From the NCBI GenBank assembly GCA_039026595.1, contig JBCCMA010000001.1, positions 24,740-88,739 on the forward strand: 64,000 nucleotides of DNA, read 5' to 3'. The notes under the pieces are model-generated. The model ran no database searches and was not told the origin of the DNA. It saw only the letters and a program-made list of their open reading frames with translations. Below, piece by piece: positions 15,177 through 48,065 of the stretch. Within the stretch, counting starts at the first letter, position 1; each line of letters begins with the position of its first letter. A program made the position numbers and the translations under genes. This stretch comes from Pseudomonadota bacterium (GTDB taxonomy: Bacteria > Pseudomonadota > Gammaproteobacteria > Steroidobacterales > JBCCMA01).

Positions 15177-15395
15177 TCAACCGACGCGCGTATCCAACGC
15201 GTCCAGTTCGGCGTGATACGCCACCCTGTCCAGCGTTTGGAACGACGACACGTCTGCTGCGCCAGGCCCTTCAATCCAGTTGAATCGGTCGGTACTCAAC
15301 ACGATAAAGTGAATGAAGATTGCCAGCGTGAACAGGAAGACTGCCATTGCGATGAGCATTCTTCGCGGATCAAACATCAGCCAAATACGCCACAT
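15177..15395 (-). CDS. pufA: light-harvesting 1 (B870/B875) alpha polypeptide
   Basis: MWRIWLMFDPRRMLIAMAVFLFTLAIFIHFIVLSTDRFNWIEG matches the LH1-alpha pattern (MWRIW..FDPRR...H.ILLST..FNW). GGAGG lies 7 nt upstream. A C-terminal extension of about 20 aa is present. Confidence 0.95.
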   Translation of the reverse strand: MWRIWLMFDPRRMLIAMAVFLFTLAIFIHFIVLSTDRFNWIEGPGAADVSSFQTLDRVAYHAELDALDTRVG

Positions 15396-15407
15396 TTTTC
15401 AGTCCTC

Positions 15408-15635
15408 CTAGGTCAGACGTGCAAGCACGTGGTTAGCGACGGCATTGGCGCCGTCCATCAACGATGCGTAACCACCTTCCCCTGGGAACCAGGGACGCCA
15501 CTGCCAAACGAGGAAGTGGGCGATGATTGCGATCACGGTGAAGCCAATGAACCCAGCCATGAACAGGCGGTGGAATTCTTTGGCCTCATTAGCGGTCAGA
15601 CCCGACATGGATCCTCCCGAGTTATGGTCAGACAT
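15408..15635 (-). CDS. pufB: light-harvesting 1 beta polypeptide
   Basis: [42 protein letters not shown] matches the LH-beta pattern (L..EA.EFH..F....AH.LVW.WRPW). It lies 12 nt upstream of pufA. An extra C-terminal tail of about 16 aa is present. Confidence 0.95.
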
Positions 15636-15742
15636 GGATCGATTCCTTACTGTCTTGCCTTACGGCAGTTACCGCACCCATCCCGTACGGCGGGGACTCC
15701 ACAACAACACTCATTTCCCTGCGAAAATTCATGCGTTACGAA

Positions 15743-15985
15743 TTACGTAACCGAGAACGCAATGGCCGTTACGTTTCGCGCGGTCAATGTCGCCTCACGA
15801 AAAGCACTCTGGTACCCCTTGCGTCCCGGTGGCCACGGCTGCCAACGCCAGCCCGACAGCGACGCTGCCAGAGCAATGGGCAGAACGGCGGCAAAACTGC
15901 ACCCCAGCACAAGCCATTCGCCGAGCGATCTCGCTGGCGTAACAGGTCGAGCCTCTGTGGTGTGTTGCACAATCGTCTGTGTCAT
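15743..15985 (-). CDS. pufQ: PufQ-like small membrane protein
   Basis: 80 aa with a single central TM segment (EWLVLGCSFAAVLPIALAASLSGW) and a basic/aromatic tail (SAFREATLTARNVTAIAF). It occupies the bchZ-pufB slot where pufQ sits in Rhodobacter-type clusters. The call rests on position, size and topology; sequence similarity is weak. Confidence 0.5.
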   Translation of the reverse strand: MTQTIVQHTTEARPVTPARSLGEWLVLGCSFAAVLPIALAASLSGWRWQPWPPGRKGYQSAFREATLTARNVTAIAFSVT

Positions 15986-16121
15986 TGGTCAGTTCCGTAG
16001 TGGTTGCATAGTGGTGCCAGGCATTTCGCGGTACGACTTGTGGTCGCAGATTGCCTCGCCCAATTCATTTCACTCCGTGTCTCGTCTGCGACGGTCGCTG
16101 TCCATAGTGTCCGCCCAACCG

Positions 16122-17573
16122 TCATGCGGCTGCGCTGGCGTTTTGCGCGGCGTGCACCACGCAATCCAGATCCACACTGCTGAGACTGAGCAGTCTGGCC
16201 TGTTTCTCTGCCGCGTCGCGAAGCGTCTTGGCAGCTGAAATTCGTATAAGGACCGGCGCTTTTTCGACAATCTCGTCGAGTCGAGCCTTCGCATTGTCGT
16301 CCCAGGGCAACGAACGCGTTTGTCGCGTCGGTGTGCTCGGCGTTTTGTCGAGCTCACTGCCGAGGGGAAGAATGTGGAACAGCGCGTCAAACATCGCGTT
16401 GCAGATTTCCTGCATCAAATAGGTGGCGCCGCTGTAACCCATGAACGGCGTGCCGGTATGACGCCGGATGATCGCGCCCGGGAAGGAAGCCGGAATGAAC
16501 ATCGTTCTGGCACCGATCTCGGACAGATACATCCGTTCGTTGTAACTGCCGAACATCATCATGGGTGTTTTGGTGTGCGTCAGTTCGCGCACTTCGTCGT
16601 TGCGAGTCTTCTGACCCGCACGTCGACTCACCGCGAACGTGCACGGCATGCCCATGTCTTCCTCCAGAAAATTGCGCACACCGCGCGTGTAGGTTTCGTT
16701 TGCGACAATGGCGAAGCTCGCCGTCGCGTAGAAATCCTGCGTCACCGACCGCCACAAATCCCACAGCGGCTTGATGGTCGTGTGCTTCTCTTTCTCGATG
16801 AACGGCTCAGGGTCCAGCCCGAGAATGTCACCGAGTTCGCGCAGGAACGCGGTGGTGCTGTGCAGCCCGATCGGCGCCTGGAGGTACGGCCGATCGAGCT
16901 GTTCGCACAGCATTCTTCCGAACTCGCGGTACATGCAGACATTCGCCTCTGCGTTCGCAAGTTTCGGTACGTCCGTGAGGAGGCTGCCGAGCGGGAACGT
17001 CAGATTGACCTCCGCGCCGAGGCCCTCAATCAGGCGGGTGATCTCCGCCAGATCGGACGGCATGTTGAAGTGCCCGTAGGCGGGCCCGATGATATTGACG
17101 CGCGGCTTCTCGCCGTCCTTGCGCTTGGGCACGGGCGGCACCTTGCCGCCTTTGGGTCCGTACTCGGACCACAGCCACGACATGGACCGATCCGCACACT
17201 GCCACTGATCTTCGTCGATCGTGCGCGGCAAAAAGCGTTTGATCTTGGTGCCCTCCGGTGTGACACCACCTCCGATCATCTCGGCGATGGAACCGGTCAC
17301 CACCACGCTCGGCTTGGAAGGATCGAGCGTCTTGTGCGCGCGCTTCATCGCGCCTTCAGTGCCTTTCTGGCCGAGCTCTTCCTCACCCAGACCCGTGACG
17401 ACAATGGGCAGTTCATGCGGCGGCAGCCCGTCGGTGTAATGCAATACCGACGTCACCGGCAGATTCTCGCAGCCCACCGGGCCGTCGATGATGACCTGCA
17501 GACCCTTGATGGCGCAGAACACGTATACCGCGCCCCAGTAGCCGCCCGCCCGATCGTGGTCGAGAACCAGCAT
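16122..17573 (-). CDS. bchZ: chlorophyllide a reductase subunit Z
   Basis: The N-terminus [40 protein letters not shown] is typical of BchZ. The gene is 483 aa and directly follows bchY. Confidence 0.95.
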
Positions 17574-19117
17574 CAGGCGTTCACCCGCTTTTTCTCGCCC
17601 GTATCCGGGGTGGTGGCACCACGTGTGGCGCGACGTTTTGGTCCACGAACCGGGCCGCGGCGTTTCTTGGGCGCAACCCGCGGCAGATCCTGCCAGACAC
17701 CGGCCTTCTCGCCCTCGCCCACACCGCCAAAGAACGCGCGCATGGTGTCCATGCGATCAGACTGCGACAGCGCGCCGTTAATAACCATGGCCAACGAGCC
17801 GGGGCCGGGGATGCCACTCAGGGGGCGTGCAGAAATCAGGTTGGTGAAATACAGACCAGGTATGGAAAGTTCTTTGGCCTTTTGCACCACCGGGGTGGTG
17901 CCAATGGCCAGGTCCGGTTTGTGGTCGAGGATCGCCTGACAATCCTGCTCGAGCGAGGCGCGGTACTGCACCTGAACCCCGCGAGCTTCAAGCCATTCAC
18001 GATCCGCAGCCGACCATGCCGTCTTGGGACAGGCCGATCCCACATATTTGAGATCCGCGCCGCACTCAACCAGCAATCGGGCAACGATCAATTCCGAGCC
18101 TTCATAACCAGACAGCGTGATTCGCGCGTTGATCGGCGACGCTGCAATGGCACCTTTGATCGCCGGCAGCACGGCATTTCGTGCCGCCTCGATCCGCTCC
18201 TCGGACACGCCCGCCGCTTCGCCGATGGCCCGAAGCCATGCGTCTGTGCCGTCGTGCCCAACCGGCGCCGACCCGACAATGGGACGTCCGGCCGCTTCGA
18301 ATTCGCGCACGCAGGCGGTGTAAAACGGATGGATAGCCGCGACGACGCGCCCCTCCAGAGCGGAATACAGTTCGCGCCATTCGCGCGTAGGCACAACGGG
18401 TCCCGCGCGCAGGCCCAATGGCTCCAACAAACCGCCGATGCTGACCGGATCGGCCGGGAACATTTCGCCAAGCAACGTCACACTCGGGCGATCGTCGTCC
18501 TGCTGATCGGCCATGGCCGCGACCGGTCCGCTTTCAATCTCTTGCCGCGCGTAGTTGAGCATCGCGCCGGCCAGTACATCCTTGGCCTCAGCGTGCGTCG
18601 GAATACCAAAACCTGGCACATCGATACCGATGATGCGCACACCGTTGATTTCCTTCGGCAGCAATTGCAAAGGCACGCCGGATGCCGTGGGCACACAGAG
18701 ATTGGTGATCACCACAGCATCGTATTGCTCCGGATCAGCCAGATCGTGTACCGCCTCACGGATGTCCTCGAACAGTTTGCCGGTGACCAGCGTTTCTGAG
18801 TTGAACGGGACGTAGCCAACGGTGCGTCGCGCGCCATAAAAATGGGACGTAAACGTCAGTCCATACACGCAACACGCCGATCCGGAGAGAATCGTGGCGG
18901 TACGCCGCATGCGCAGCCCAACACGCAACGAACCGAACGCCGGACACATCGACTGAGGCTGATCGTGCGGCCCCATCGGATAGTCCTTCGCGTACTTCTC
19001 AAGCAGCTCGGCCTTGCCCGCAGCGGCGGCTGACTTACGCAGCTCATCCTTGGCGTGGCAGCCGCTGGCCGGGGCCGGAGCGCTCGTGTTCGCGTTGTTG
19101 GTTGGCGTATCGGTCAT
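17573..19117 (-). CDS. bchY: chlorophyllide a reductase subunit Y
   Basis: [45 protein letters not shown] is a NifD/BchN-like Cys pattern. The gene lies between bchX and bchZ. Confidence 0.95.
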
Positions 19118-19119
19118 GG

Positions 19120-20148
19120 TCAGACGTTGTCGTAAACGACCTCCAGCGATGGCCGTTCGATCACGGACTTGCCGCTCATATCTTCCATGGTGGCCGGCGT
19201 CAGCGTGACGCCTGCACCGACGGACTCACCGCTAAACAGACCAAGCAGTCCGTCCTGCGACAAGGGCGTGGGGTGTTTCGGTGGCGCTTCAGCCACGTTG
19301 GTCGCGAGCTCTTCGAACAGCGACGCCCAGGGCCCGCCTGGCTTGCCCACAATCTCGTAGTTAGCGCTCTTGCGCCGGATGTCGTCATCGGCCGGAATAG
19401 CGGCCAGCACCGGAATGCCCACCGCTTCGGCGAATGCGTGCGCCTCGCCCGTGCCATCATCCTTGTTGATCGCCATACCGGCCACACCCACGTTGCCGCC
19501 GAGCTTGCGGAAATACTCCACAGCCGAGCACACGTTGTTGGCCACATAGAGCGACTGAAGATCATTTGAACCGACGACGATGACTTTCTGGCACATGTCA
19601 CGGGCGATCGGCAGACCAAAGCCACCGCACACCACGTCACCCAGGAAGTCGAGCAGCACGTAATCGAAATCCCATTCGTGGAAGCCCAGCTTCTCCATGA
19701 TCTCGAAGCCGTGAATGATGCCGCGACCACCGCAGCCCCGACCGACTTCCGGACCACCGAGCTCCATGGCGAACACACCGTCACGCTTGAAGCAGACATC
19801 GCCGATGGTGACGGGGTCCCCCGCCTCCTTGAGACGAGCAGAGGTTTCAATGATGGTCGGGCAGCTTTTGCCGCCAAACAGCAATGAGGTGGTATCGCTT
19901 TTCGGGTCACACCCGATCAGCAGCACTTTTTTGCCCTGCTGCGCCATCATGTAAGACAGATTGGACAGCGTAAAACTCTTACCGATGCCGCCCTTGCCGT
20001 AAATGGCGATGATCTGCGTTTCCTTGGTCACCTCTTCGGTGGCCACTGGCTCGGATTCCTGCGACGCCTCCTCGCGCAGACGCTCATGCATGGCGGCCTG
20101 TCCGTTCACGGTTTGCGTCTTGATGACGTCTGCTTCGGTCGCGCTCAT
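19120..20148 (-). CDS. bchX: chlorophyllide a reductase iron protein subunit X
   Basis: A NifH-like P-loop ([20 protein letters not shown]) and the cluster ligands (GDVVCGGFG). ORF 19120..20184. I prefer the ATG at 20148, which overlaps the bchC stop as ATGA. Confidence 0.93.
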   Translation of the reverse strand: MSATEADVIKTQTVNGQAAMHERLREEASQESEPVATEEVTKETQIIAIYGKGGIGKSFTLSNLSYMMAQQGKKVLLIGCDPKSDTTSLLFGGKSCPTIIETSARLKEAGDPVTIGDVCFKRDGVFAMELGGPEVGRGCGGRGIIHGFEIMEKLGFHEWDFDYVLLDFLGDVVCGGFGLPIARDMCQKVIVVGSNDLQSLYVANNVCSAVEYFRKLGGNVGVAGMAINKDDGTGEAHAFAEAVGIPVLAAIPADDDIRRKSANYEIVGKPGGPWASLFEELATNVAEAPPKHPTPLSQDGLLGLFSGESVGAGVTLTPATMEDMSGKSVIERPSLEVVYDNV

Positions 20149-21104
20149 TGCAGCGTTCTCCAGTCCATCACCATTTTCAGGCAATTGGGATCACCAAATG
20201 CCGTGTCGTAGGCCATCGACGCTTCCGACGCCGGCACGGTGTGTGTAATCAGCCCGTCCAGTGAAAGCGCACCATCCTCGACCATGCGGTGCGCATTCCG
20301 AAGATCTACCCGCTTCCACTCAGCAGCGATGCGGAAGCGTGCTTCGCGCATGAATGCGGGCGGGAAAGTGAATGACAGTCGTTTTGAATAGAAGCCAGCC
20401 AGCACAATCTCGCCACCCGGCGCAATCCGCTTGACCAGATCATCGAGGATGTCCGCGTCGCCGCTGACGTCATAAATATGCTGGTAGTCGTGGCGCGTAT
20501 CTTTTTCCGGACGCAAAACGTCATAGCCTTGTGCGCCGGCAAAGCGGCCGGAGTCGACTTCCCAGACCGTGGGCGGCACACCGGTCATCGCCAGCGACAG
20601 CCGGGCAAGTAACCGACCCAACACGCCGTGACCAATAATCAGATCGGGTGCGGCCGAGTGTCCGGCACCACGAATGGCGTGCAAGGCTGTTGCAGCGAGC
20701 GCCAGCAAGGTTCCCTTGTCATAGACCGAGGTACTGATACGCAGCGCCTTTTCGGATGGCACCACGAGGCGTGACGCTGACCCGCCGAACAAACCGCGCA
20801 CATCACCAAAGCAGTCTGCGCCGCTGACAAACACACGTTCGCCGATGCGCGACCGTTGATCCAGACCGGCATCCACAATCTGCCCAACCGTTTCATAGCC
20901 CGGCACCAGCGGATAGGCGAGCCCCGGAAAAGACGGCATGGCGCCGTTCCACAACAACCGCTCGGTGCCTGTGCTTATTCCCGAGAATTCAACATCGACG
21001 ACGACGTCGTTCTGACCGGGTGCGGTCAGCGGGAGGTCCGCCAGCACAAGTGCGTTCGGACGCTCGAAGACCACGGCTTTCGCCTGTAGTGAAGAGTCGC
21101 TCAT
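20145..21104 (-). CDS. bchC: bacteriochlorophyllide a dehydrogenase (3-hydroxyethyl to 3-acetyl)
   Basis: The fold is medium-chain dehydrogenase (VVVDVEFSGISTGTERLLWNGAMPSFPGLAYPLVPGYE). Supported by its position ahead of bchXYZ and by the tandem PpsR operators upstream. Confidence 0.9.
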   Translation of the reverse strand: MSDSSLQAKAVVFERPNALVLADLPLTAPGQNDVVVDVEFSGISTGTERLLWNGAMPSFPGLAYPLVPGYETVGQIVDAGLDQRSRIGERVFVSGADCFGDVRGLFGGSASRLVVPSEKALRISTSVYDKGTLLALAATALHAIRGAGHSAAPDLIIGHGVLGRLLARLSLAMTGVPPTVWEVDSGRFAGAQGYDVLRPEKDTRHDYQHIYDVSGDADILDDLVKRIAPGGEIVLAGFYSKRLSFTFPPAFMREARFRIAAEWKRVDLRNAHRMVEDGALSLDGLITHTVPASEASMAYDTAFGDPNCLKMVMDWRTLQ

Positions 21105-21152
21105 TTACCGCTGTCGTCGTTCGTGTTTTTGATCGGGAGAAAGAGTGTAGAT

Positions 21153-21196
21153 TGTCAGTCTACGCTGACGCTTCGAGTTGTCAACTACTGCTGACA
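21153..21196 (-). promoter_or_regulatory. bchC promoter with tandem PpsR/CrtJ operators
   Basis: The perfect site is TGTCAACTACTGCTGACA (21179-21196). A one-mismatch site, TGTCAGTCTACGCTGACG (21153-21170), lies exactly 8 bp away. On the minus strand these contain TTGACA (-35; plus-strand 21179-21184) and TAGACT (-10; plus-strand 21157-21162) with a 16-nt spacer, about 50 nt upstream of the bchC ATG. Confidence 0.75.
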
Positions 21197-21199
21197 TTG

Positions 21200-22444
21200 T
21201 CACGTATCTACCTGACATGACAGCACTCGGGCCAGCATCGGGATCGTCGTTTTGTGCATGACCGGGGCACGGAAACCGGCCCGCCGCAGAAGACCGGCGA
21301 GCTCGTCGGGAGTCCGCGGGCGCCCGGTGCCCATCGCCCGTAGATAGACCCGGAAATACGCATCACCCATACGCCGCGCCTCGCGTGTGCCGGCCATCGG
21401 CTCGGCGATCAAAATCGCGCCACCTGGCGCCAGCGCATCACGAATACGCTCAAGCAGTCCGAGGACGGTGTCGTCGTCGTGATCGTGCGCAATGCGAACC
21501 AGGGAAATCAGATCATGCCCTTGCGGCAAAGCATCGCGCCGAAAATCACCGCCGTGCACGGAGGAGCGCGCCGCAAGACCGGCATCGGCCAGCGATTGTC
21601 TCGCCAGATCGGCCACGGGCGGCAAATCAAACAGCGACAACTCAAGATCAGGCGCCGCCACCGCTACTGCGCGCAGGAACGCGCCGCTGCCACCGCCCAC
21701 ATCCAGAAGACGACGGAAACGCCGGAAATCGAAAGCGTCGATCACCTGCTCGGCCACCATAGGCTGGGACGCTGCCATCAGGTCCGAATAGCGTGTCGCC
21801 GCATCCCGTGACAGCCCGTCTCCACCTGCATAAGGCCAGTACGCATTGAGCGCCGCGTGATCCGTATCGCCGCGCATCAGCGCGACCGGATCCACCAGAT
21901 CGCGGTAAAGGTGTTCGTGGTGATGAACCATCGCCTGCAGCGACGCATCCTCCATCATCACGACACCCAAACGCCCCGCCACGTACTCGCCGTCGCCCAC
22001 CGGACTCAAGAGATCAAGGGAAGCGGCCGCGCGAAGAAGGTCTGACCACGCGAGTTCGTCAAGGCCGCCATGGCCGGCAAGGCGATCGCTACGCAGCGGT
22101 CCCGATCGAAGACGGTCGAATACATCCAGCCGCACGCACGCCATCAGAATTTGTGAATACGCAAAGCCAGCGATCAGATCGAACAGCTCGCTGGCCTGCC
22201 TTTGCGCAATGCGCCGGGTGGGCCAGAAGCGATGGGCCGCTCGACGAAACCTTGGACTCGCAAGGAGCCGGTTGCGAAAAGCAAGCCAGCGGCGATGGAG
22301 CCCCGACGGGGCCACATGCGCATCGGCCGGTTCAAACAGATGTTGCAATGGAATCAGGCGGCGGCGATGCGCAGCAACGCCATGTCCATGAATCGATCGG
22401 ATTCGTGGCGAATCTGTTGCCGCAACTCGCGCTCGCCCGGACAC
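21200..22444 (-). CDS. crtF: hydroxyneurosporene / demethylspheroidene O-methyltransferase
   Basis: The N-terminal region reads WLAFRNRLLASPRFRRAAHRFWPTRRIAQRQASELFDLIAGFAYSQIL. The class-I SAM motif is RLLDVGGGSGAF. The start is uncertain because the ORF overlaps the crtE 3' end by 91 nt, so the true start is probably downstream. Confidence 0.88.
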   Translation of the reverse strand: MSGRARVAATDSPRIRSIHGHGVAAHRRRLIPLQHLFEPADAHVAPSGLHRRWLAFRNRLLASPRFRRAAHRFWPTRRIAQRQASELFDLIAGFAYSQILMACVRLDVFDRLRSGPLRSDRLAGHGGLDELAWSDLLRAAASLDLLSPVGDGEYVAGRLGVVMMEDASLQAMVHHHEHLYRDLVDPVALMRGDTDHAALNAYWPYAGGDGLSRDAATRYSDLMAASQPMVAEQVIDAFDFRRFRRLLDVGGGSGAFLRAVAVAAPDLELSLFDLPPVADLARQSLADAGLAARSSVHGGDFRRDALPQGHDLISLVRIAHDHDDDTVLGLLERIRDALAPGGAILIAEPMAGTREARRMGDAYFRVYLRAMGTGRPRTPDELAGLLRRAGFRAPVMHKTTIPMLARVLSCQVDT

Positions 22445-23229
22445 GCCGGAATGGAACTGGCCACATTCTCGAGCAAGCCTTCGAGATACTTCTCAGATTC
22501 ACGCATACCGCGCTGGAGAACGGAATTGGGACGAACGAGATCAGAGTCCTGGCCGACCGGTTTGCCGATCTCTTCGGGGTCCGCTGTGACATCGAGGATG
22601 TCGTCGACCACCTGATAGGCCTCGCCAAGGCCCTGCCCGAGCGGTGCCCAGCCGTCTACCGCGGCGCCGGCCGAGGCGGCGCCAATCTCCGTCGCAGCGA
22701 CAAACAGCGCACCGGTTTTCTGGCGCTGATAACGATCAAGCGTGGGGCTGTCCTCACACTCCCACGCCTGACCCGCGGCGATGCCTGTGGGCGCGCCGAT
22801 GCCGCGCGATAACGCCAGCAGCATCGTCGGGAGGCGCGACGGACAGTCGCGGGCCGCTCTGGCGAGGGTGTCGAACGCCATCACAATCAAGGCATCGCCG
22901 ACCAACACGGCGAGGCGCTGGCCGAAGGCCACATGGAGCGCTGGTTTACCCCGGCGGGTCGCAGCGTCGTCAAAACACGGCAGATCGTCGTGCACGAGCG
23001 ACGCGCAGTGAATCAGTTCCACGGACGCGGCGGCGGCCACAGAAACAGCCGGTCGGTCGGTCGCGCAGGCCTGCGCAACAGCAAGAGAGAGCTTGGGACG
23101 AATCCGGGCGCCGCCCGGAAAAAGCGCGTACTCGAGCGCCTCCTGGAAGCGCGGCGGGCAATCATCATGGTGCGCACGGTCGACGGCACCCCGCAGGCAG
23201 TCCTCTACCTGTGTTGCTGCTGTGTCCAT
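22354..23229 (-). CDS. crtE: geranylgeranyl diphosphate synthase
   Basis: Polyprenyl synthase aspartate-rich motifs are present (LVHDDLPCFDD and the second motif VVDDILD). ORF 22354..23292. The ATG at 23229 has AGGGGAG 6 nt upstream and leaves the PpsR box in the promoter region. Confidence 0.9.
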   Translation of the reverse strand: MDTAATQVEDCLRGAVDRAHHDDCPPRFQEALEYALFPGGARIRPKLSLAVAQACATDRPAVSVAAAASVELIHCASLVHDDLPCFDDAATRRGKPALHVAFGQRLAVLVGDALIVMAFDTLARAARDCPSRLPTMLLALSRGIGAPTGIAAGQAWECEDSPTLDRYQRQKTGALFVAATEIGAASAGAAVDGWAPLGQGLGEAYQVVDDILDVTADPEEIGKPVGQDSDLVRPNSVLQRGMRESEKYLEGLLENVASSIPACPGERELRQQIRHESDRFMDMALLRIAAA

Positions 23230-23286
23230 CGAAACTCCCCTGCGCTTATCATGGTCGCGACTGTCAATGTTTGTTGTCGCATTAAT

Positions 23287-23304
23287 TGTCATTTAGCATA
23301 GACA
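23287..23304. promoter_or_regulatory. PpsR/CrtJ operator in the divergent crtE / crtC region
   Basis: Perfect TGT-N12-ACA: TGTCATTTAGCATAGACA. It contains a TAGCAT (-10-like) hexamer on the plus strand. Confidence 0.65.
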
Positions 23305-23388: not shown

Positions 23389-24306
23389 ATGCATTTTCCA
23401 GTCTTCGACACGGGGGTACCCGACGGCGGGTATAAGTGGTGGTACGTGGACGGCACGAGCGCCGACCATCGGCATCACATCGTGATGATTGCGTTTGTGG
23501 GCAGCGTGTTCTCACCCCATTACTTCCGGGCACTCCGCCGTTCGGCCGCCCCGGCAGAGCGGTATTGCGCGTTTAATCTCGGGGTGTACTCCAAAGGCCA
23601 ACGCCGCTGGGTGCTCTCCGAATACAACGAGAGCCAGATCAGCCGAGACACCAACACATTCGCGCTCGGCACAAATCGACTGCACTTTGACGGCACGCGC
23701 CTGCACATCGAGATTTGTGACCGCGCGGTACCAATACCGCGATCCGTGACCGGCCGCATCACCGTCACACCGACTTGCGTTACAAACGACCCGCTTACGC
23801 TCGACGACGAAGGGCAGCAGAAGTGGTGGCCATATGCCCCGCGAACTCGCCTTGATGTGGCCCTGACCGATCCGGCGTTGCGATGGCAAGGTCAGGGCTA
23901 CTTCGATGCCAATTCAGGCACCGTCCCGCTTCCGGTTTCCTTTCGCAAGTGGCATTGGAGCCGTCAACACATCGGTAACGCCACGCGCATCACGTACCAC
24001 ACCACTCCGAAATCCCACGCGGGCAAATCCATGTCGATGGTGATACACAAGGATGGCCGGCTTGAGCACGCTGAGCCGCTTGAGCAATACGAACTGCCAC
24101 GCGGCCTGTGGGGCATGCGACGTCCAATCGCCGCGGCGGAACCACCGACCCTTATTCAGACACTCGAAGACACGCCCTTCTACACACGATCGATCGTTGC
24201 CGCACCGAAGTCCGCGAAGGCCCTTACCATGCACGAAAGCCTGTCGCTGGACCGGTTCGTGCAACCCTGGGTGCAGCGCCTGCTGCCGTTCCGGACGCGG
24301 CGCTGA
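23389..24306 (+). CDS. crtC: acyclic carotenoid 1,2-hydratase (hydroxyneurosporene synthase)
   Basis: The N-terminus FDTGVPDGGYKWWYVDGTSADHRHHIVMIAFVGSVFSPHYF matches the CrtC signature (GGY.WWY.D..S.D....I.F.GSVFSP.Y). Confidence 0.9.
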   Translation: MHFPVFDTGVPDGGYKWWYVDGTSADHRHHIVMIAFVGSVFSPHYFRALRRSAAPAERYCAFNLGVYSKGQRRWVLSEYNESQISRDTNTFALGTNRLHFDGTRLHIEICDRAVPIPRSVTGRITVTPTCVTNDPLTLDDEGQQKWWPYAPRTRLDVALTDPALRWQGQGYFDANSGTVPLPVSFRKWHWSRQHIGNATRITYHTTPKSHAGKSMSMVIHKDGRLEHAEPLEQYELPRGLWGMRRPIAAAEPPTLIQTLEDTPFYTRSIVAAPKSAKALTMHESLSLDRFVQPWVQRLLPFRTRR

Positions 24307-24315: not shown

Positions 24316-24975
24316 TCAGAACTGCCATCCGACCCCGACCGTGATGGTCAGCGGTGTGTAGTCCGACGTCACGACACGGCTCGTATTCGCCGGAAACTCA
24401 AGTTCGGCACCGGACACGCTCAGATAGCGCGCACCGGCATCAAGATAGAGTTGATCCGACAGCGAGTAGCGCCCGCCCACTTGCAACTGAAAACCGACCT
24501 CATCGGTCTCGAATGATGTCTCCGCCCCACCAACTTCAAAGTCGATATCCACCTCCTGCACGAACACGAGCCCGACCCCGGCATACCACCGCAGGCGATC
24601 GGAGGATGCCACGCCGAAATCCCGCAACACGTTAAAACCGATACTGAATGAGGCGAAGTCACCGCCCGTACTGGCGCCGACACCCTGCAGCGTCACGTCG
24701 TCCAGATCATTGCGCCGGTACAGCACGTCACTCTCCAGACGCCAGCGGGGATTGAGCCTGAATCCAAACGCTACGCCACCGGTGAACGACGCGCCAAAAT
24801 CAGCGTCTGCGCTTGAGGTTGTCATGGCATCGCGATAGTCCAGACGTTGCTCCCCCAGAAATCCGAGGCCAACCGTCGCAGTGGCGTAAAAACCACTTTC
24901 CGAGTCGGCGAGCACCGCGGCCCCGGAAACGGCAAACCAGACAGACAAAGTGACGTGCAAAAATCGTGTGTTCAT
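24316..24975 (-). CDS. small outer-membrane beta-barrel protein (OmpW/OMP_b-brl-like)
   Basis: ORF 24316..25005. The ATG at 24975 gives the signal peptide MNTRFLHVTLSVWFAVSGAAVLA. Strands alternate hydrophobic and polar residues, with Gly/aromatic girdles. The C-terminal beta-signal reads ITVGVGWQF. Confidence 0.75.
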   Translation of the reverse strand: MNTRFLHVTLSVWFAVSGAAVLADSESGFYATATVGLGFLGEQRLDYRDAMTTSSADADFGASFTGGVAFGFRLNPRWRLESDVLYRRNDLDDVTLQGVGASTGGDFASFSIGFNVLRDFGVASSDRLRWYAGVGLVFVQEVDIDFEVGGAETSFETDEVGFQLQVGGRYSLSDQLYLDAGARYLSVSGAELEFPANTSRVVTSDYTPLTITVGVGWQF

Positions 24976-25122
24976 CGTGTGTGTCCTCGCGTATGCGTCA
25001 TTCATGGTTGCAGTGAGCCTTGCACGTGGCCGATTGTCGCAAAAGACTGAAATCGCACAAATTGCACGAACGGCAGGAGCGCTGCACCAACGGTATGGAC
25101 CCGCCCGTGTACACTGCTCGTT

Positions 25123-25953
25123 ATGACGGCTTCCTTCCTGTTCACTCGCCAGCTACTGATGATCGGAGCGGCGCTGACGGTGCTCTTTGCCGTTCTGTCG
25201 CCCGACGCAAGCGCAGGGCTTCCGCTGATTTCCCGACTTCTTTTCTGGGCGGCGCATATCGGGATCGGTCTCAGTATCGCCGTGTTGTGTGCACGCCGTC
25301 TGGCGCTGTGGTTTCCCGCATTGCGCGACTGGCGCCTCATCGCCGCTGCCGGCATTGCCGGCGTCGTCGTCTTTGCACCGTGCGCCCTTTTGCTGGAGTG
25401 GCTGTTTCCCGTTCTTGAAGCCGTTGATGAGCGGGGCTGGCTCGATCAGGTCGCAGGGACCTCCACTCTAGCTGCCGTTGTTGTCGAAGGCATCGAGCTC
25501 GCGCCCTCGTATCTGGCAGCGTGGTGCCTGATCAACGCGGCGCCCATTGCGTTCACGCAACGGCGAGAGAACAATGATCCGAAGAGCACGCAAGCTCAGG
25601 CACCGTTGGAAGATTCCTCCGATCCGGCGAGCTCTTTTTTAGCTCGACTTCCACCGGCTATCGGTCGTGATCTCGTTTCCGTGTCGTCAGATCTCCATTA
25701 TCTGAACGTCGTGACGATGCGGGGTCGGGCCATGATTCTTGGCGCAATGCAGGATGTCGAAACGGCCTTTGGCAAACGCGGACTGCGTGTTCACCGATCG
25801 CACTGGGTCCATAATGACGCGGTGGTCAGGGTGTGGCGGACATCGCCAAGCTGGCAAATTGAGCTGGCAGATGGCTCCCGTGTCCCGGTCAGCCGACGCA
25901 AACGCGCAGCTGTTATTGCCCAACTCGGGCAGGATTTCTGCCGTGACAAATAG
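25123..25953 (+). CDS. membrane-anchored LytTR-domain DNA-binding protein (one-component regulator)
   Basis: The N-terminal ~150 aa hold 4-5 predicted TM helices. The C-terminal LytTR domain reads SDLHYLNVVTMRGRAMILGAMQDVETAFGKRGLRVHRSHWVHNDAVV...ADGSRVPVSRRKRAAV. Confidence 0.8.
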   Translation: MTASFLFTRQLLMIGAALTVLFAVLSPDASAGLPLISRLLFWAAHIGIGLSIAVLCARRLALWFPALRDWRLIAAAGIAGVVVFAPCALLLEWLFPVLEAVDERGWLDQVAGTSTLAAVVVEGIELAPSYLAAWCLINAAPIAFTQRRENNDPKSTQAQAPLEDSSDPASSFLARLPPAIGRDLVSVSSDLHYLNVVTMRGRAMILGAMQDVETAFGKRGLRVHRSHWVHNDAVVRVWRTSPSWQIELADGSRVPVSRRKRAAVIAQLGQDFCRDK

Positions 25954-30567: not shown

Positions 30568-30568
30568 A

Positions 30569-31351: not shown

Positions 31352-31363
31352 CGCAACGTCCGC

Positions 31364-33495: not shown

Positions 33496-41466
<7,971 letters not shown>

Positions 41467-41654: not shown

Positions 41655-42527
41655 ATGACGACGCATCCCACTGACGACGAGCAAGAAGCTCGTTGTGACG
41701 ACCGGGCGACGCCTGATTCTTGTGATCAATCGTCGCTTCTGGCCCGGACTATTGAGGGGGAGATCATCCCGCGCCTGATGATGACGGTAAATGTGCTACC
41801 CAATCCGCTGTCTCTGGAGCAAGCTCGCGACGTTAGCGGCTTGTTCGAGGACAATGAGGAGCTGATCGCCGAGCTGATTCGGCTACTCCTTAACCACGAT
41901 GCGCGGGTGTCCGTCGAATTCCTGAGCGGTCTGCGGTCGCGCGGAGCCACGCTTCGGGACATGTATCTGGACCTTCTCGCACCGGCGGCCCGTCAGCTCG
42001 GGGTTATGTGGGAAGAGGACACGGCCAACTTCGCCCAGGTCACCGTCGGCGTCAGCCGACTACACCAGATTCTGCTTCAGTTCAGCCCGCTGTTTTGCGC
42101 CGAGGCTCCGGACAACCACAACGGTCGAACGGCAGCCATTTTTGCGCTGCCGGGCGAATCGCACACGTTCGGTATCTTCATGGTCGTCGAGTTCTTCCGA
42201 CGCGCCGGCTGGACCGTCTACAGCGGCACGCTCAGCGAAGACAGCGCCGTTAAACAGCTGTTGAGCACCCACGAGGTGGATGTTTTTGGGGTATCCGTCA
42301 GCGCCGAGCGCCATTTGACCGAACTACCCGAACGCATCGCCCGCCTGCGCGCGGCGTCCCGTAACCCGGAAATGAAAGTGATTTGCGGCGGTCACGCTTT
42401 TCTCCGGGACAGCACCCTGCATACCAGTATCGGGGCGGACGGGTTCGCCGAGGACGGCCGCCGTGCTGTCGAACTTGCCAATACACTGGTCAAGATCAAT
42501 GCAGCGACGCAGCCCGGTACCGCTTGA
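41655..42527 (+). CDS. ppaA: cobalamin-binding antirepressor PpaA/AerR
   Basis: The C-terminal B12-binding domain carries the E/DxHxxG motif (ALPGESHTFGIFMVVEFFRRAGWTV). It lies directly upstream of ppsR and divergent from bchF. Confidence 0.85.
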   Translation: MTTHPTDDEQEARCDDRATPDSCDQSSLLARTIEGEIIPRLMMTVNVLPNPLSLEQARDVSGLFEDNEELIAELIRLLLNHDARVSVEFLSGLRSRGATLRDMYLDLLAPAARQLGVMWEEDTANFAQVTVGVSRLHQILLQFSPLFCAEAPDNHNGRTAAIFALPGESHTFGIFMVVEFFRRAGWTVYSGTLSEDSAVKQLLSTHEVDVFGVSVSAERHLTELPERIARLRAASRNPEMKVICGGHAFLRDSTLHTSIGADGFAEDGRRAVELANTLVKINAATQPGTA

Positions 42528-42575: not shown

Positions 42576-44006
42576 ATGACCTCCCGCTCCCAATCCAGCA
42601 GCCAGATCGCAAAACGCTACGCGAGTAGCATTCAGGTCGACGCAATGCGCCAGATTCTGGCGGGCGCGAACGACATCGCGCTGGTTATTGATCGCAAGGG
42701 CGTTGTGCGCGACGTTGCAGCAGAGCACGACAAGGACATTTTGTCGCTTGCGGGAGGCTGGGTCGGTTCACCCTGGATCGACACGGTGACGACCGAGAGC
42801 CGGCCCAAGGTGGAGTCGATTCTGCGAGCCACCGAAACCGATCGGCCGTCGCGCTGGCGGCATTTGAACCACCCGTCACCGAGCGACGGACCGGATCTGC
42901 CCGTCATGTACCGCGCCTTCGGACTGGGAGAGCCGTCGTACCGCATTGTCATGGGTCGTGACCTGCGCCCTATGTCATCACTGCAGCAACAACTGCTCGA
43001 TGTTCAGCAATCGATCGAGCGGGACTATGCGCGTCTGTACCACGCCGAAACCCGCTATCGCATGCTATTCCAGGTGTCATCCGAAGCGGTACTGATCGTA
43101 GACGCCGGCAGCGGCCAGGTGATCGAGGCCAATCCCGCGGCGGCGGCGCTGTTTGACCAACCCGTCAACAAGGTCATCGGTCAGCCCCTCGCCAAGTTCT
43201 TTGCGCGGGGCGAAGCCGACGCGCTTGCCGCCATGCAAGCCCGCCTCAGCGCAGCTGGCAAACCCGAGGAACTCACCGGAACCACGCGCGATGGCGATTC
43301 GATGACGATCGCCGCAACCTTCCTGCGCCATGATTCGTCCCCGCTGGCGCTGCTGCGCCTGCATCCCGCTGGAACGTCAATGACCGAACGCAGCAGTGGC
43401 GGACCATCGGTGGCACTTGAGGTGATGGAACGCTCACCCGACGCGTTTGTGATCACCGATTTGAATGGGCGAATACTCACCGTTAATGACGCCTTCATTT
43501 CACTGTGCCAGGTTGCTTCCGAACTGCAGCTTGTCAATCAACCTCTGGACCAGTGGGTCGGTCGGCCCGGTGTCGATGTGGATGTACTGCGCAAAAACCT
43601 GAAACAGCGTGGCGAAATTCGGCACTTTGCCACGCGGATCAACCCCGAATACGGGGCCAGCGTGGACGTCGAATTATCCGCCGTGGCCGTCAAAGACGGC
43701 GAGTTGCCCTGCCTCGGCTTCGTGATCAGACATGTTATGCGCCCGGCCCGCAGTGCCACGATGGCCAGCCAGCCCATGGTGCGTACGCTGGAGCAAATGA
43801 CCGAACTGGTCGGCCAAGTGCCCATGAAGGATCTCGTCCGGGAAACGACCGACATCATTGAAAGAATGTGCATCGAGGCGGCGCTCAAATTGACCACAAA
43901 CAACCGGGCCTCTGCCGCCGACATGCTGGGCCTTTCGCGCCAGAGCCTTTACGTCAAGCTCAATAGATATGGCATTGGAGAGCCAAGAGGCGACGACGCA
44001 GCCTGA
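42576..44006 (+). CDS. ppsR: photosynthesis gene repressor PpsR/CrtJ (PAS-PAS-HTH)
   Basis: 476 aa with PAS-like repeats and a C-terminal Fis-type HTH (NNRASAADMLGLSRQSLYVKLNRYGI). Confidence 0.92.
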   Translation: MTSRSQSSSQIAKRYASSIQVDAMRQILAGANDIALVIDRKGVVRDVAAEHDKDILSLAGGWVGSPWIDTVTTESRPKVESILRATETDRPSRWRHLNHPSPSDGPDLPVMYRAFGLGEPSYRIVMGRDLRPMSSLQQQLLDVQQSIERDYARLYHAETRYRMLFQVSSEAVLIVDAGSGQVIEANPAAAALFDQPVNKVIGQPLAKFFARGEADALAAMQARLSAAGKPEELTGTTRDGDSMTIAATFLRHDSSPLALLRLHPAGTSMTERSSGGPSVALEVMERSPDAFVITDLNGRILTVNDAFISLCQVASELQLVNQPLDQWVGRPGVDVDVLRKNLKQRGEIRHFATRINPEYGASVDVELSAVAVKDGELPCLGFVIRHVMRPARSATMASQPMVRTLEQMTELVGQVPMKDLVRETTDIIERMCIEAALKLTTNNRASAADMLGLSRQSLYVKLNRYGIGEPRGDDAA

Positions 44007-44109: not shown

Positions 44110-45018
44110 ATGTCACGCGCGACCACACATCCAGCGGTGGTCAGCCGCCCCGCGTGGACGGCTTACCTTGAGCTTCTGAAACCCATCACGTGGTTTCCGC
44201 CCATGTGGGCATTTGCCTGTGGATTGGTTGCCTCCGGTGCGCTTCTGGGTGATCGCTGGCTGTTCGTTCTCGGCGGTATCGCGCTGACCGGACCACTGGT
44301 CTGCGGCACCTCGCAGGTGGTCAACGACTGGTTCGACCGCCATGTTGACGCCATCAACGAACCGCATCGCCCCATTCCATCTGGCCGCGTCCCCGAACAA
44401 CGCGCGCTGTTCTTTGCCATCGCGTGGACCGGCGTCTCGTTTATTGTGGCGGCCCTTCTGGGCCCGTGGGTGTTTGCCGCCACGGTCGTCGCTCAGATTC
44501 TGGCCTGGGCCTACAGTGCGCCGCCGTTTCGTCTGAAACTGAACGGATGGTGGGGCAACGCAGCGGTCGGAGCGTGCTACGAGGGTCTGCCATGGCTAAC
44601 CGCGGCCGCCGTGTTGAGCGCCGCCGCGCCCACGTGGCATTCGTGGGCCGCCGCCGCGCTCTACAGCCTTGGCGCGCACGGCATCATGACGCTGAATGAT
44701 TTCAAGTCGATCGAGGGCGACCGCAAGACAGGTGTTCGGTCGCTGCCCGCGCGCTATGGCGCCGATGTCGGTGCCCAACTCGCCTGTTTGTTCATGGTGG
44801 TGCCGCAGATCGGGGTTATCGCGCTGCTGCACATCCTGGGACAGCCTGTCTATGCTGGCGGGGTCGGCCTTTTGCTGCTGGGTCAACTGCTGCTGATGCG
44901 GCGGCTCGCCACCGATCCGAAACGCCTAGCGCCTTGGTACAACGCCACCGGTGTGGCGCTCTACGTCAGCGGCATGATGCTAACGGCGTTCGCCATTCGC
45001 AGCGTGCTTCTGCCATGA
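44110..45018 (+). CDS. bchG: bacteriochlorophyll synthase (UbiA-family prenyltransferase)
   Basis: LELLKPITWFPPMWAFACG and the Asp-rich motif NDWFDRHVDAINEPHRPIPSG. Confidence 0.93.
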   Translation: MSRATTHPAVVSRPAWTAYLELLKPITWFPPMWAFACGLVASGALLGDRWLFVLGGIALTGPLVCGTSQVVNDWFDRHVDAINEPHRPIPSGRVPEQRALFFAIAWTGVSFIVAALLGPWVFAATVVAQILAWAYSAPPFRLKLNGWWGNAAVGACYEGLPWLTAAAVLSAAAPTWHSWAAAALYSLGAHGIMTLNDFKSIEGDRKTGVRSLPARYGADVGAQLACLFMVVPQIGVIALLHILGQPVYAGGVGLLLLGQLLLMRRLATDPKRLAPWYNATGVALYVSGMMLTAFAIRSVLLP

Positions 45019-46385
45019 GTCGTGCATCGCACAAGGGCTTGAGCTGGTTTGGCATCGCGCGCCTTGGGCTGGTTCAGACTGCGCTTGGCGCGGTTGTTGT
45101 CCTCACCACATCCACTTTTAATCGTGTGATGGTCGTGGAACTGTCGTTGGCGGCTGTTCTGCCCGGCTTGCTTGTCGCCGCCCACTACGCGATCCAGATC
45201 CTGCGCCCCCGGTTTGGTCACGGCTCGGATACAGGCGGCCGACGCACGCCGTGGATTATCGGCGGCATGATCGTTCTCGCGTTCGGCGGCACGCTGGCCG
45301 CAGTGGCGATTGCCATTGCCGCCGATCACATTGCTGCCGGCCTTGCGTTGTCACTGATCGCTTATCTCATGATTGGTATGGGCGTCGGCGCGTGCGGCAC
45401 GTCGCTGCTGGTCCTGCTCGCCGAGCGCGCCGCGCCCGAGCGACGCCCCGCTGCGGCCACCATGACGTGGGTCATGATGATTATCGGATTCATCGTGACC
45501 ACGATTGTGGTCGGCGAACTGCTCGACCCGTTCTCGATGCAACGACTGGTCGCCGTGACGGCGGGGGTTGGCATGGTCGCGGTGCTGATCACTCTGCTCG
45601 CAAGCGCCGGTATCGAGTCAGGTGGTGCCGCGGTACAGCCCGCCAGCGCAGAAGCGCCACGCGGTGATTTCCGAACGGCTATACGCGAGGTTCTTAGCGA
45701 ACAGCGCACCCGACGGTTTGGGTTTTTCGTCTTTATGTCGATGCTCGCGTACAGCGCGCAGGACCTGCTCGTTGAACCGTTCGCAGGCGCCCTGTTCGGT
45801 CTGACGCCGGGCGAATCAACTCAACTGGGCGGCGTGCAACACGGCGGCGTCCTGCTTGGCATGATCCTGGTTGGCCTGATCGGATCGGCGTATGGCAAAG
45901 GTCGCGAGCGACCGCTGCGGGTGTGCATGGTCGCCGGCTGTCTCGGTTCAGCGACGATGCTGTCCCTGCTTGCGCTGGCTGCGTACAACGGTGGCGACTG
46001 GCCCTTGGTCGCCAATTTGTTCGCACTCGGACTGGCCAACGGCCTTTTTGCCGTCGCGGCGATCGGCTCGATGATGAGCATGGTCAGTGAAGGGCACGAG
46101 AACCGGGACGGCGTCCGCATGGGCGTTTGGGGTGCCGCACAGGCCATCGCATTTGGTCTCGGCGGGGTGATCGGCACTGCGCTCGTTGACGTTGTGCAAT
46201 GGCTCACCGGTTCCACGCCGACGGCCTATGGCCTTGCCTTTGTATTACAGGCCGCACTGTTTGTTGCGGCCACTCTGATTGCGGTCTCGCTCAGTCGTGA
46301 TGCCGCGACGGCCCTGTCGCGCCCTGCGTCGGTCGAGCCTTTTAATCGCGTTGCCAGTCAGGAGACAGCGCATGGACAAGTTTGA
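45015..46385 (+). CDS. PucC-family MFS protein of the bchG-bchP operon (orf428/bch2 type)
   Basis: ORF 44934..46385. The ATG at 45015 overlaps the bchG stop (ATGA). The sequence RLGLVQTALGAVVVLTTSTFNRVMVVEL repeats the PucC-family N-terminal motif seen in lhaA. Confidence 0.82.
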   Translation: MSRASHKGLSWFGIARLGLVQTALGAVVVLTTSTFNRVMVVELSLAAVLPGLLVAAHYAIQILRPRFGHGSDTGGRRTPWIIGGMIVLAFGGTLAAVAIAIAADHIAAGLALSLIAYLMIGMGVGACGTSLLVLLAERAAPERRPAAATMTWVMMIIGFIVTTIVVGELLDPFSMQRLVAVTAGVGMVAVLITLLASAGIESGGAAVQPASAEAPRGDFRTAIREVLSEQRTRRFGFFVFMSMLAYSAQDLLVEPFAGALFGLTPGESTQLGGVQHGGVLLGMILVGLIGSAYGKGRERPLRVCMVAGCLGSATMLSLLALAAYNGGDWPLVANLFALGLANGLFAVAAIGSMMSMVSEGHENRDGVRMGVWGAAQAIAFGLGGVIGTALVDVVQWLTGSTPTAYGLAFVLQAALFVAATLIAVSLSRDAATALSRPASVEPFNRVASQETAHGQV

Positions 46386-47574
46386 TGTAGTTGTCGTAGG
46401 CGGCGGGCCCACAGGCGCCACCGCCGCCAATGATCTGGCCACCAAAGGGCTGAATGTCCTTCTCATTGACAAGGACGGTCGGATCAAACCGTGCGGCGGG
46501 GCGATCCCACCAAAACTGGTGCGAGAGTTTGATATCGCCGAGTCACTTCTGTGCGAGAAAGTCACCACCGCCAGAATGATTTCGCCGTCCGGTCAGGAAG
46601 TCGACATGGACATTGGCGGCTGGGTGGGCATGGTCAATCGAGACGAGTTCGATGAATGGCTGCGCCAACGGGCCGCAAAAAACGGTGCGACGCGCGTCAC
46701 CGGTTATTTCCGCCGTGTGTTGCATGACATGGAAGACGAGCCCATCGTCGAATACGTCAGCGGTCGCGAGGCCGTTCGCGTTCGCACACGGGCGATCATT
46801 GGCGCCGACGGCGCCTTGTCGATGGTGGCCAAGGACTGCATCCCGGGTGCCGAAGATGTCCCCAAGGTGTTCGCGTACCACGAGATCGTGAAAACGCCAC
46901 AGGCGCCGTCCAAGGGTTACGACGGCAAGCGCTGCGACGTGTATTACCAGGGCGAATGCTCACCGGATTTTTACGGCTGGGTCTTCCCGCACGGTGACAA
47001 GATCAGCATTGGGACCGGCACAGCAGAAAAAGGCTTTTCATTACGCAAAGCGGTTGTAAAGCTGCGCGATGCTGCGGGACTGACCAACGCCGAGGACGTC
47101 CGCGTAGAGGGCGCACCAATTCCGCTTCGCACGCTGAAAAAATGGGACAACGGTCGCGACACCGTAGTCGCCGGGGACGCCGCGGGCGCCGTGGCCCCGG
47201 CGTCGGGCGAGGGCATCTACTACGCCATGTTAAGCGGTCGGTTTGCGGCCGATGCGACCGCCGAGTTTGTGCGTACGCGCAATCCGAAAGCGCTCAAGAT
47301 GGCCCGCAAACGCTTCATGCGATTACACGGACGGGTGTTCCTTATTCTCGGCATCATGCAGCGCTTCTGGTACACCACAGACAAGCGGCGCGAGCGATTT
47401 GTCAGCATCTGCAAAGACCCGGACGTGCAGCGGCTGACCTGGGAGGCGTATATGAACAAGAAACTGGTGCGGGCCAAACCCATCGCCCACATCCGCATCT
47501 TCTTCAAAGACCTCGCCCACCTCGTGGGCCTGGCGCCCAGTCGATCGCCCGACAAACCGCAAAAACCAGCCTGA
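46372..47574 (+). CDS. bchP: geranylgeranyl reductase
   Basis: The start is at the internal ATG 46372 (MDKFDVVVVGGGPTGATAANDLA, an FAD-binding GxGxxG). Conserved motifs include PCGGAIP and GDAAGAVAPASGEGIYYAM. Confidence 0.93.
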   Translation: MDKFDVVVVGGGPTGATAANDLATKGLNVLLIDKDGRIKPCGGAIPPKLVREFDIAESLLCEKVTTARMISPSGQEVDMDIGGWVGMVNRDEFDEWLRQRAAKNGATRVTGYFRRVLHDMEDEPIVEYVSGREAVRVRTRAIIGADGALSMVAKDCIPGAEDVPKVFAYHEIVKTPQAPSKGYDGKRCDVYYQGECSPDFYGWVFPHGDKISIGTGTAEKGFSLRKAVVKLRDAAGLTNAEDVRVEGAPIPLRTLKKWDNGRDTVVAGDAAGAVAPASGEGIYYAMLSGRFAADATAEFVRTRNPKALKMARKRFMRLHGRVFLILGIMQRFWYTTDKRRERFVSICKDPDVQRLTWEAYMNKKLVRAKPIAHIRIFFKDLAHLVGLAPSRSPDKPQKPA

Positions 47575-47585
47575 CGCGCACCGCC

Positions 47586-48065
47586 TTGAGTTCAACACTG
47601 CGCCGATACTGGCCAACGGCCGCCGTTGCGCTGGTCCTGTCGCTGGGCATCGGCGGTTTGGGCGGCGCCCTGACCGATCTGGGCGACTGGTATCAGAACC
47701 TGACGCAACCGGCATGGAAGCCGCCCGACTGGGCCTTTGGCCCCGCGTGGACGAGCATTTTCATTTTGTGTGCCGCGGCCATCAGCATCGCGTGGGTACA
47801 CGCTCCGACACAGCGCGCAAAACGGCAAATCATCATCGTGTTTGCAATCAATGCGATCCTGAACCTGCTGTGGAGCGCGTTGTTTTTTGTTTTCAAAATG
47901 CCGCTGCCCGCGCTGGTCGAGATTGTGCCGCTCTGGCTGTCGATTCTGGCGTGCACCATCGTTTGCTGGCGCATCCGGCCGCTGGCCGGCGTGTGCCTGA
48001 TGCCGTATCTGGTTTGGGTCGCGTTCGCATCGACGGTCAATTATGGTGTCGTGGTCCTGAACTGA
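47586..48065 (+). CDS. tspO: tryptophan-rich sensory protein TspO/MBR
   Basis: Only the last ~160 aa of ORF 47142..48065 are TspO-like (WYQNLTQPAWKPPDWAFGPAWTSIFIL ... LNLLWSALFF ... MPYLVWVAFASTVN). There is no in-frame ATG, so the TTG at 47586 is my best guess and the start is uncertain. Confidence 0.85.
   Translation: MSSTLRRYWPTAAVALVLSLGIGGLGGALTDLGDWYQNLTQPAWKPPDWAFGPAWTSIFILCAAAISIAWVHAPTQRAKRQIIIVFAINAILNLLWSALFFVFKMPLPALVEIVPLWLSILACTIVCWRIRPLAGVCLMPYLVWVAFASTVNYGVVVLN

Follow-up and report, generated by a model that had tools for sequence, protein, structure and literature searches.

In NOR5/OM60 and in the Sphingomonadales, carotenoid genes have been described outside the photosynthesis gene cluster (PGC), and in NOR5/OM60 acsF is also found away from puhC-puhE (PMC3176799). 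Citromicrobium sp. JL354 carries an incomplete PGC, consisting of pufLMC-puhCBA, on an integrating conjugative element (PMC3338782). Here we analyse a PGC at positions 15177-48065 of a 64-kb stretch of DNA (the window) from a marine gammaproteobacterial metagenome-assembled genome (MAG), in which genes for bacteriochlorophyll (BChl) synthesis, light-harvesting complex 1 (LH1) and regulation are present and those for the reaction centre and the cyclase are absent. Like the clusters of NOR5/OM60 and the Sphingomonadales, it contains no carotenoid desaturase genes; unlike them, its bchFNBHLM-lhaA-puhABC block is broken and it has no pufLM (PMC3176799). The JL354 module demonstrates that reaction-centre genes are separable and transferable, and it holds almost exactly the genes missing from the window; however, it coexists with a complete PGC, whereas the cluster described here lost its own copies, and acsF too (PMC3338782). 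The reading we favour, at a probability of roughly 60%, is that of a vertically inherited cluster that lost its reaction-centre genes in this lineage while the rest was maintained, with the reaction centre and cyclase encoded at another locus.

The PuhE encoded in the window is identical to NCBI protein MEM6638305.1, and the clusters of relatives were reached mainly via PuhE homologues. By this protein, the closest relative was GCA_039821445.1 (L089/L090, 79%), with 75% for L083/L092 (ENA ERZ26696270 contig_66, an uncultured Gammaproteobacteria/Pseudomonadota MAG); a scan of metagenome contigs with PuhE returned distant relatives at 47-51% identity and nothing else. The BchZ of the window had no exact match on record. 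In a one-genome-per-species GTDB set the nearest BchZ (83% identical) came from an uncultured gammaproteobacterial MAG; its contig (L002, 5.5 kb) carries pufQ-pufB-pufA-pufL and the start of pufM. Further relatives, likewise uncultured Gammaproteobacteria/Pseudomonadota MAGs, were L084 (GCA_045106455.1), L087 (GCA_039028935.1) and L100 (GCA_964639265.1), and a Logan contig with the puhABC/acsF arrangement was also found. In L083/L092 the gene order is bchBHLM-lhaA-puhA-puhB-puhC-acsF-puhE-bchIDO-crtB-(crtC reversed)-crtE-crtF-bchCXYZ-pufB-pufA-pufL-pufM-pufC, followed by unrelated genes. The puhABC genes stand between lhaA and puhE in L083, L084, L087, L089/L090, L094 and L100, and acsF accompanies them in every relative examined except L087. 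In that cluster (11429-17771) puhC is followed directly by puhE, without acsF, and a DUF3422 gene lies between bchO and crtB. The position of acsF is variable within the clade, and NOR5/OM60 resembles L087 in that acsF does not lie between puhC and puhE (PMC3176799).

The window shares gene order and orientation with its nearest relatives (bchFNBHLM-lhaA...puhE-bchIDO-crtB, crtC reversed, crtEF-bchCXYZ-pufBA), at a DNA identity of ~66-76% and a protein identity to L083/L092 of 52-93%. It differs in lacking the puhABC of all relatives and the pufLMC of L092, of which only a fragment of pufM is present, and in carrying an extra pair of genes for an outer membrane protein (OMP) and a LytTR-domain protein. 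Collinearity with L083/L092, at ~75% DNA identity, was seen on both sides of each gap. It extends into the flank, where the window gene 6352-9630 (1092 aa), ~5.5 kb beyond the pufM fragment, is homologous to an L092 gene ~7 kb beyond pufC; here L092 20067-20179 (BNR/sortilin-like gene) matches window 9458-9346 over 113 nt at 73% identity. Because this flank gene is shared, so is the chromosomal neighbourhood, and the cluster was inherited in place.

The initial annotation of this DNA had listed the absent genes as slots that were all closed, and had proposed synteny with close relatives as a check. When that comparison was run, the puf and puhABC-acsF absences proved specific to the window and the others common to the relatives examined. 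The distances given for the slots were right; however, three of the five (those of crtI, of crtD and after puhE) had been drawn from Rhodobacter-type clusters and are not slots in this clade, being equally closed in the relatives examined. None of these carries crtI ahead of crtB or crtD next to crtC, and in all of them puhE abuts bchI. Likewise, the joint absence of the two desaturase genes, which had been considered a notable pattern, is common to all related clusters examined, and the location of crtI and crtD outside the cluster appears to be the ancestral state of the clade. Specific to the window lineage are the disappearance of pufL and pufC and of most of pufM, the clean 3-kb loss of puhABC-acsF, and the gain of the OMP and LytTR genes. 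The idea that relatives without a PuhA among the top matches also lack a reaction centre was dropped, as the P0008 cluster proved normal.

Evidence for the former presence of reaction-centre genes comes from the 380 nt between pufA and the gene for a TonB-dependent receptor. Terminators and this receptor gene had been reported after pufA, with no pseudogene debris; hairpins and receptor are indeed present, but a decayed piece of pufM lies between. The features of this interval are as follows:

12620-14797, minus strand: TonB-dependent receptor gene, located where relatives carry the pufM 3' end, pufC and other genes
14814-14847, minus strand: hairpin resembling an intrinsic terminator, with a U8 run behind it, downstream of the remnant (from fold and sequence)
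14924-15081, minus strand: pufM pseudogene remnant with a 2-nt frameshift and a ~38-nt internal deletion, truncated at both ends
15108-15168, minus strand: strong hairpin and small GC hairpin with a U-run, directly after pufA (-48.5 kcal/mol, z -5.15)

Where purple-bacterial clusters have pufL and pufM after the antenna genes, the window has a ~155-nt frameshifted pufM fragment and no pufL. With relatives' PufM sequences as tblastn queries, 126 of 134 matched 14927-15081 on the minus strand (best E 4e-5), and a hidden Markov model built from PufM recovered three collinear pieces in three frames, GSIFELGMHGATALAMSH / EVEQIVDRGTASQR / IHCCGWWFAVLF. The remnant corresponds to PufM residues ~208-275 of ~321, and two stretches of its DNA align with L092 pufM, one of 94 nt at 84% identity (E 7.6e-22 against the window) and one of 35 nt at 86%. 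Two indels fall within ~130 nt. Among 25 codons that are at least 97% conserved across 67 PufM sequences, the remnant differs at six, five of which are not common to L092, whereas the functional pufM of L092 differs at one. These deviations are a measurable record of neutral decay since inactivation. Given the remnant, pufL and pufM both stood formerly at the puf locus. The first 24 nt past the pufA stop, which form the start of the strong hairpin, are conserved with L092, and the hairpin at 15108-15168 is the retained pufA-pufL intercistronic element, which now ends the operon. A consensus terminator and promoter scan of 14600-16200 returned nothing, though folding gives strong hairpins there.

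The second lineage-specific gap replaces puhA-puhB-puhC-acsF, which occupies ~3 kb in relatives, with the 12-nt spacer 31352-31363, and both deletion endpoints lie between genes, in spacers that measure 22 and 13 nt in L083. Of the purple-bacterial block bchFNBHLM-lhaA-puhABC, bchFNBHLM-lhaA is kept, PuhA, PuhB and PuhC are missing, and puhE starts 12 nt past lhaA. The spacings first reported for this region were reproduced, namely 12 nt from the lhaA stop (31364) to the puhE start (31351), 1 nt from the puhE stop (30569) to the bchI ATG (30567), a 4-nt overlap of bchO and crtB (26928-26931), and 9 nt between the crtC end (24306) and the end of the convergent OMP open reading frame (ORF; 24316).

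A second assembly of matching DNA was provided by the Logan contigs of run SRR22824308, which are short and were matched by PufA and PuhE. Contig L082 was 100% identical to window 30142-32088 (1947 nt), across lhaA-puhE-bchI, and contig L001 was identical to 14093-15395, across pufA, the remnant and the TonB receptor gene. Since a second assembler reproduced both unusual junctions, we consider them real, and a diverged, frameshifted pufM fragment is not something that assembly creates. The remnant, together with relatives in which bchZ-pufBALMC and lhaA-puhABC-acsF-puhE occupy the corresponding places, shows deletion in place: the reaction-centre genes were once part of the cluster and were then deleted. 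Past 15395, where L001 was compared with window 15396-15545, it shows 14 differences from the window packed into 112 nt (15396-15507) that take in the end of pufB and the pufB-pufA spacer. The differences are mostly synonymous, with one EG -> VD change, and the segment is about equally far (91%) from the window and L092. It could represent a further pufB copy of this genome or a relative that co-occurs, or L001 could be chimeric.

No gene for PufL, PufM, PufC, CrtD/I, PuhA or AcsF was found in the 64 kb by tblastn with relatives' queries (8-134 sequences for each, the extremes being AcsF and PufM). Together with the ORF listing, this bears out the earlier statement that no ORF in the window resembles PufL/M, PuhA, AcsF, BchE, CrtI or CrtD. 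For AcsF the best E value was 0.5 with the eight queries, and no Rubrerythrin ORF occurred among the annotated genes; nor did any radical-SAM BchE-like ORF occur among the annotated ORFs of the window. Weak PufL/PufM matches at 55692-55847 and 26908-27030 lay inside the coding sequences of SpoIID and bchO/crtB, respectively, and were taken as chance. The Mg-protoporphyrin monomethyl ester cyclase gene (acsF/bchE) that belongs to a purple-bacterial cluster is thus absent from the window. Because BChl synthesis requires AcsF or BchE, at least some genes for photosynthesis must be located beyond the window. The reading we favour would place the reaction centre and crtI/crtD elsewhere in the genome along with the cyclase. 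The window also showed no bchJ or bciA-type 8-vinyl reductase gene and no genes for LH2 (pucBA), despite a second PucC-family gene.

The remainder of the cluster comprises 28 full-length photosynthesis genes with near full-length profile coverage. Genes were named by NCBIfam and Pfam profiles, and the inventory in the initial annotation stood, with its 28 genes named by profiles, apart from the pufQ-like ORF, which had no profile match. The genes bchIDH, bchM, bchLNB, bchF, bchCXYZ, bchG and bchP are clustered, with NCBIfam equivalog models above cutoff or nearly full length. The conserved block of crtF-bchCXYZ followed by the LH1 genes pufBA is present and collinear with L092; over 16122-23292 (bchZYXC-crtFE) DNA identity is 75.8%. 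The genes, named by profile unless stated otherwise, are:

15177-15395, minus strand: pufA, LH1 alpha; intact, BChl-binding histidine kept (pufBA match profiles NF040862/NF040861)
15408-15635, minus strand: pufB, LH1 beta; intact, BChl-binding histidine kept
15743-15985, minus strand: pufQ-like small ORF, no profile match, conserved in L002
16122-17573, minus strand: bchZ
17573-19117, minus strand: bchY
19120-20148, minus strand: bchX
20145-21104, minus strand: bchC
21200-~22348, minus strand: crtF
22354-~23229, minus strand: crtE
23389-24306, plus strand: crtC, divergent from crtE across a 96-nt spacer
25969-26931, minus strand: crtB
26928-27821, minus strand: bchO
27818-29557, minus strand: bchD
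29554-30567, minus strand: bchI
30569-31351, minus strand: puhE
31364-32797, minus strand: lhaA
32794-33495, minus strand: bchM
33495-34415, minus strand: bchL
34412-38098, minus strand: bchH
38070-39632, minus strand: bchB
39629-40909, minus strand: bchN
40906-~41421, minus strand: bchF
41655-42527, plus strand: ppaA, B12-binding PpaA-like protein
42576-44006, plus strand: ppsR (TIGR02040, 432 bits)
44110-45018, plus strand: bchG
45015-46385, plus strand: pucC-like, second PucC-family gene
46372-47574, plus strand: bchP
~47586-48065, plus strand: tspO

Across their 30.2 kb of coding sequence these 28 genes contain zero stops and zero frameshifts. Disruptions are not spread over the cluster as in a relic, with decay confined to the pufLMC and puhABC-acsF positions. 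Against L083/L092, the ratio of nonsynonymous to synonymous substitution rates (dN/dS) was 0.03-0.28 for every gene, including pufBA, lhaA and puhE (0.08 for pufB and 0.13 for pufA against L092), at synonymous sites that are saturated (four-fold-site identity 35-52%, 73% in pufB; dS >1 except in pufA and pufB). Simulated neutral divergence of 1% over the 30.2 kb introduced ~9 stop codons, with none of 200 runs remaining stop-free, and at 0.5% divergence 1% of runs were stop-free. Because the remnant has decayed while 30 kb around it stayed undisrupted, the conclusion that the remaining 28 genes have been under purifying selection after pufM inactivation is well supported, and the erosion is selective for reaction-centre genes. 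Likewise, a deletion of puhABC-acsF that respects gene boundaries is to be expected only under a need to keep lhaA and puhE-bchIDO-crtB working.

These observations lead to the following account. Successive deletions took away pufL, pufC and most of pufM, leaving the decayed pufM fragment, and puhA-puhB-puhC-acsF went in one gene-boundary-precise deletion, after which lhaA, puhE and bchIDO-crtB still form a single, tightly packed operon. The machinery for pigments and antenna would still be in use, with the reaction centre (L, M, H, probably cytochrome C and PuhB/C) and the cyclase supplied from a locus outside the window. Most economically, a second reaction-centre module may have been acquired or duplicated, rendering the native copies redundant and open to erosion; the mobile pufLMC-puhCBA cassette of Citromicrobium JL354 gives an idea of what that module would look like. 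We know of no role for LH1, LhaA, PuhE or PucC without a reaction centre. The two alternatives offered initially, a bipartite cluster or one without a reaction centre, remain the right ones, and continued purifying selection on the 28 genes favours the bipartite reading over both a relic and a reaction-centre-less system.

Several results count against such a split system. Among the best 120 matches per search, the ~34 NCBI accessions of PuhA/PufL matches were all far from MEM6638305, and no clade-type PuhA or PufL from run SRR22824308 appeared among the matches listed. Accession distance is weak negative evidence, PufL is too conserved for a top-120 list to be clade-specific, and islands and plasmids are often lost from MAGs. 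In addition, dN/dS at saturation (dS >1) mostly reflects history before the loss, and the indels of the remnant could date from the deletion event itself, which weakens the dating. In relative-rate comparisons the window had 377 unique changes to 261 in the relative with L084 as outgroup, a topology that is uncertain; with the safer outgroup L087, where topology is also uncertain, the counts were 221 and 188 and the difference was not significant. The first of these comparisons hints at somewhat faster evolution in the window lineage. By gene, window-specific amino-acid changes against those of L083 numbered 40 vs 18 and 34 vs 17 in three-way comparisons for bchO (26928-27821), and 29 vs 10 for puhE (30569-31351), where another outgroup gave 15 vs 15.

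That phototrophy is instead being lost, with no reaction centre anywhere and the rest an undecayed or partly used relic (e.g., for carotenoids), strikes us as unlikely, even though a cluster without any cyclase cannot make BChl from its own genes and no reaction-centre gene of this MAG was found among the listed PuhA/PufL matches. The window lineage has a slightly raised rate of amino-acid changes of its own, most of all in bchO and puhE, which would fit, and loss of phototrophy genes among close relatives is documented, e.g., in Citromicrobium JLT1363 (PMC3338782). However, a remnant was decaying neutrally while 30 kb of its neighbours escaped disruption, where simulation at 1% divergence gave ~9 stops; the puhABC-acsF deletion was boundary-precise and preserved the operon; and LH1, lhaA, puhE and pucC are conserved as well as the bch genes, despite having no known reaction-centre-free use. 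Less probable still, at the level of an outside chance, is that there is no reaction centre at all and that the BChl pathway, LH1, assembly factors and redox/light regulators are selected for a non-photochemical use, such as sensing, photoprotection or membrane organisation, or, as a variant, that the antenna might feed an unrecognised acceptor. The evidence for selection and the missing reaction-centre genes are as this account expects, and KatG, thioredoxin and tspO near the cluster would fit the management of photo-oxidative stress. Such a function is nevertheless without a known example, and we know of none for an LH1-BChl system without photochemistry; in aerobes, BChl excited in an LH1 ring that has no trap yields singlet oxygen, so that such a system should be costly. 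With the cyclase and crtI also outside the window, reaction-centre genes elsewhere are the simpler assumption.

A loose parallel exists in the Binatota, known from MAGs alone, in which BChl genes without detectable reaction centres have been reported and for which the authors favour a non-functional pathway (PMC8262859). Like the window, the Binatota have pigment genes, no reaction centre that could be found and the same caveat of MAG completeness; they differ in having scattered, incomplete 'gene shrapnel' with no bchM, bchXYZ, bchF, antenna genes or PGC regulators (PMC8262859), whereas the window holds a purple-bacterial cluster with LH1, lhaA, puhE and ppsR in which reaction-centre genes were demonstrably once present. 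An artefact, be it mis-assembly, a chimera or a minor deletion variant within an otherwise normal population of phototrophs, would suit the MAG source, and the second pufB variant on L001 does indicate closely related sequence in the same sample. We regard it as the least probable account, and highly improbable, given that a different assembler reproduced the two junctions, that the diverged and frameshifted pufM fragment is no assembly product, and that DNA identity to relatives is unbroken on both sides of each gap.

In the interval between crtC and crtB the window carries its specific insertion:

24316-25005, minus strand: OMP beta-barrel gene
25123-25953, plus strand: membrane-protein gene whose product has a LytTR DNA-binding domain at its C-terminus

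The pair is absent from L083/L092, L084/L085, L087 and L100, and neither flanking repeats nor mobile-element genes were seen around it. Scans of the window for tRNA genes, Rfam families and repeats found no integration site and no IS-like repeat, in agreement with the initial annotation, which had seen no insertion sequence (IS). Palindromes of the PpsR type (TGT-N12-ACA) stand at the classical positions, at 21179-21196 upstream of bchC and at 23287-23304 in the crtE/crtC spacer; the motif count over the window (16 observed vs 11 +/- 3 expected) was not above chance. An ORF of 411 codons at 15003-16238 on the plus strand runs antisense through pufA, pufB and pufQ and is spurious. GC-rich antisense ORFs of this kind are numerous in the window, likewise spurious, and could mislead automatic gene calling.

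Both flanks were checked and hold solely genes unrelated to photosynthesis, as first described. On the left lie OmpA, TSP3-repeat proteins, KatG, thioredoxin and a TonB receptor, and on the right MscL, a large Ig-domain protein, SpoIID, GT2, GNAT, a TonB receptor and an S9 peptidase. The KatG catalase-peroxidase, a secreted thioredoxin-like protein and the TonB-dependent receptor (9753-14797) adjoin the truncated puf operon, and at this position L092 has a different set (phytase-like, NAT, GST, HtrA-like). Very large secreted proteins of 955, 1092 and 1633 aa are encoded at 2344-9630 and 49435-54336, with thrombospondin type-3 repeats and P-domain, Ig-like and dockerin-like domains.

Whichever reading holds, the cluster is a dated, internally controlled case of gene erosion that acted selectively within a superoperon. 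Should the organism have no reaction centre, a BChl-antenna system would be under selection without photochemistry, which would be very surprising. If the module is found elsewhere, the cluster would represent a state that is predicted but, per our literature searches, undocumented, in which a Citromicrobium-type cassette replaced the native reaction-centre copies while pigment and antenna genes were kept. Surveys that use pufM beside bchZ/pufBA as a marker, and cluster-based calls of phototrophy in MAGs, could then mislead, and there would be direct evidence that the reaction-centre and pigment modules of purple bacteria evolve and move separately.

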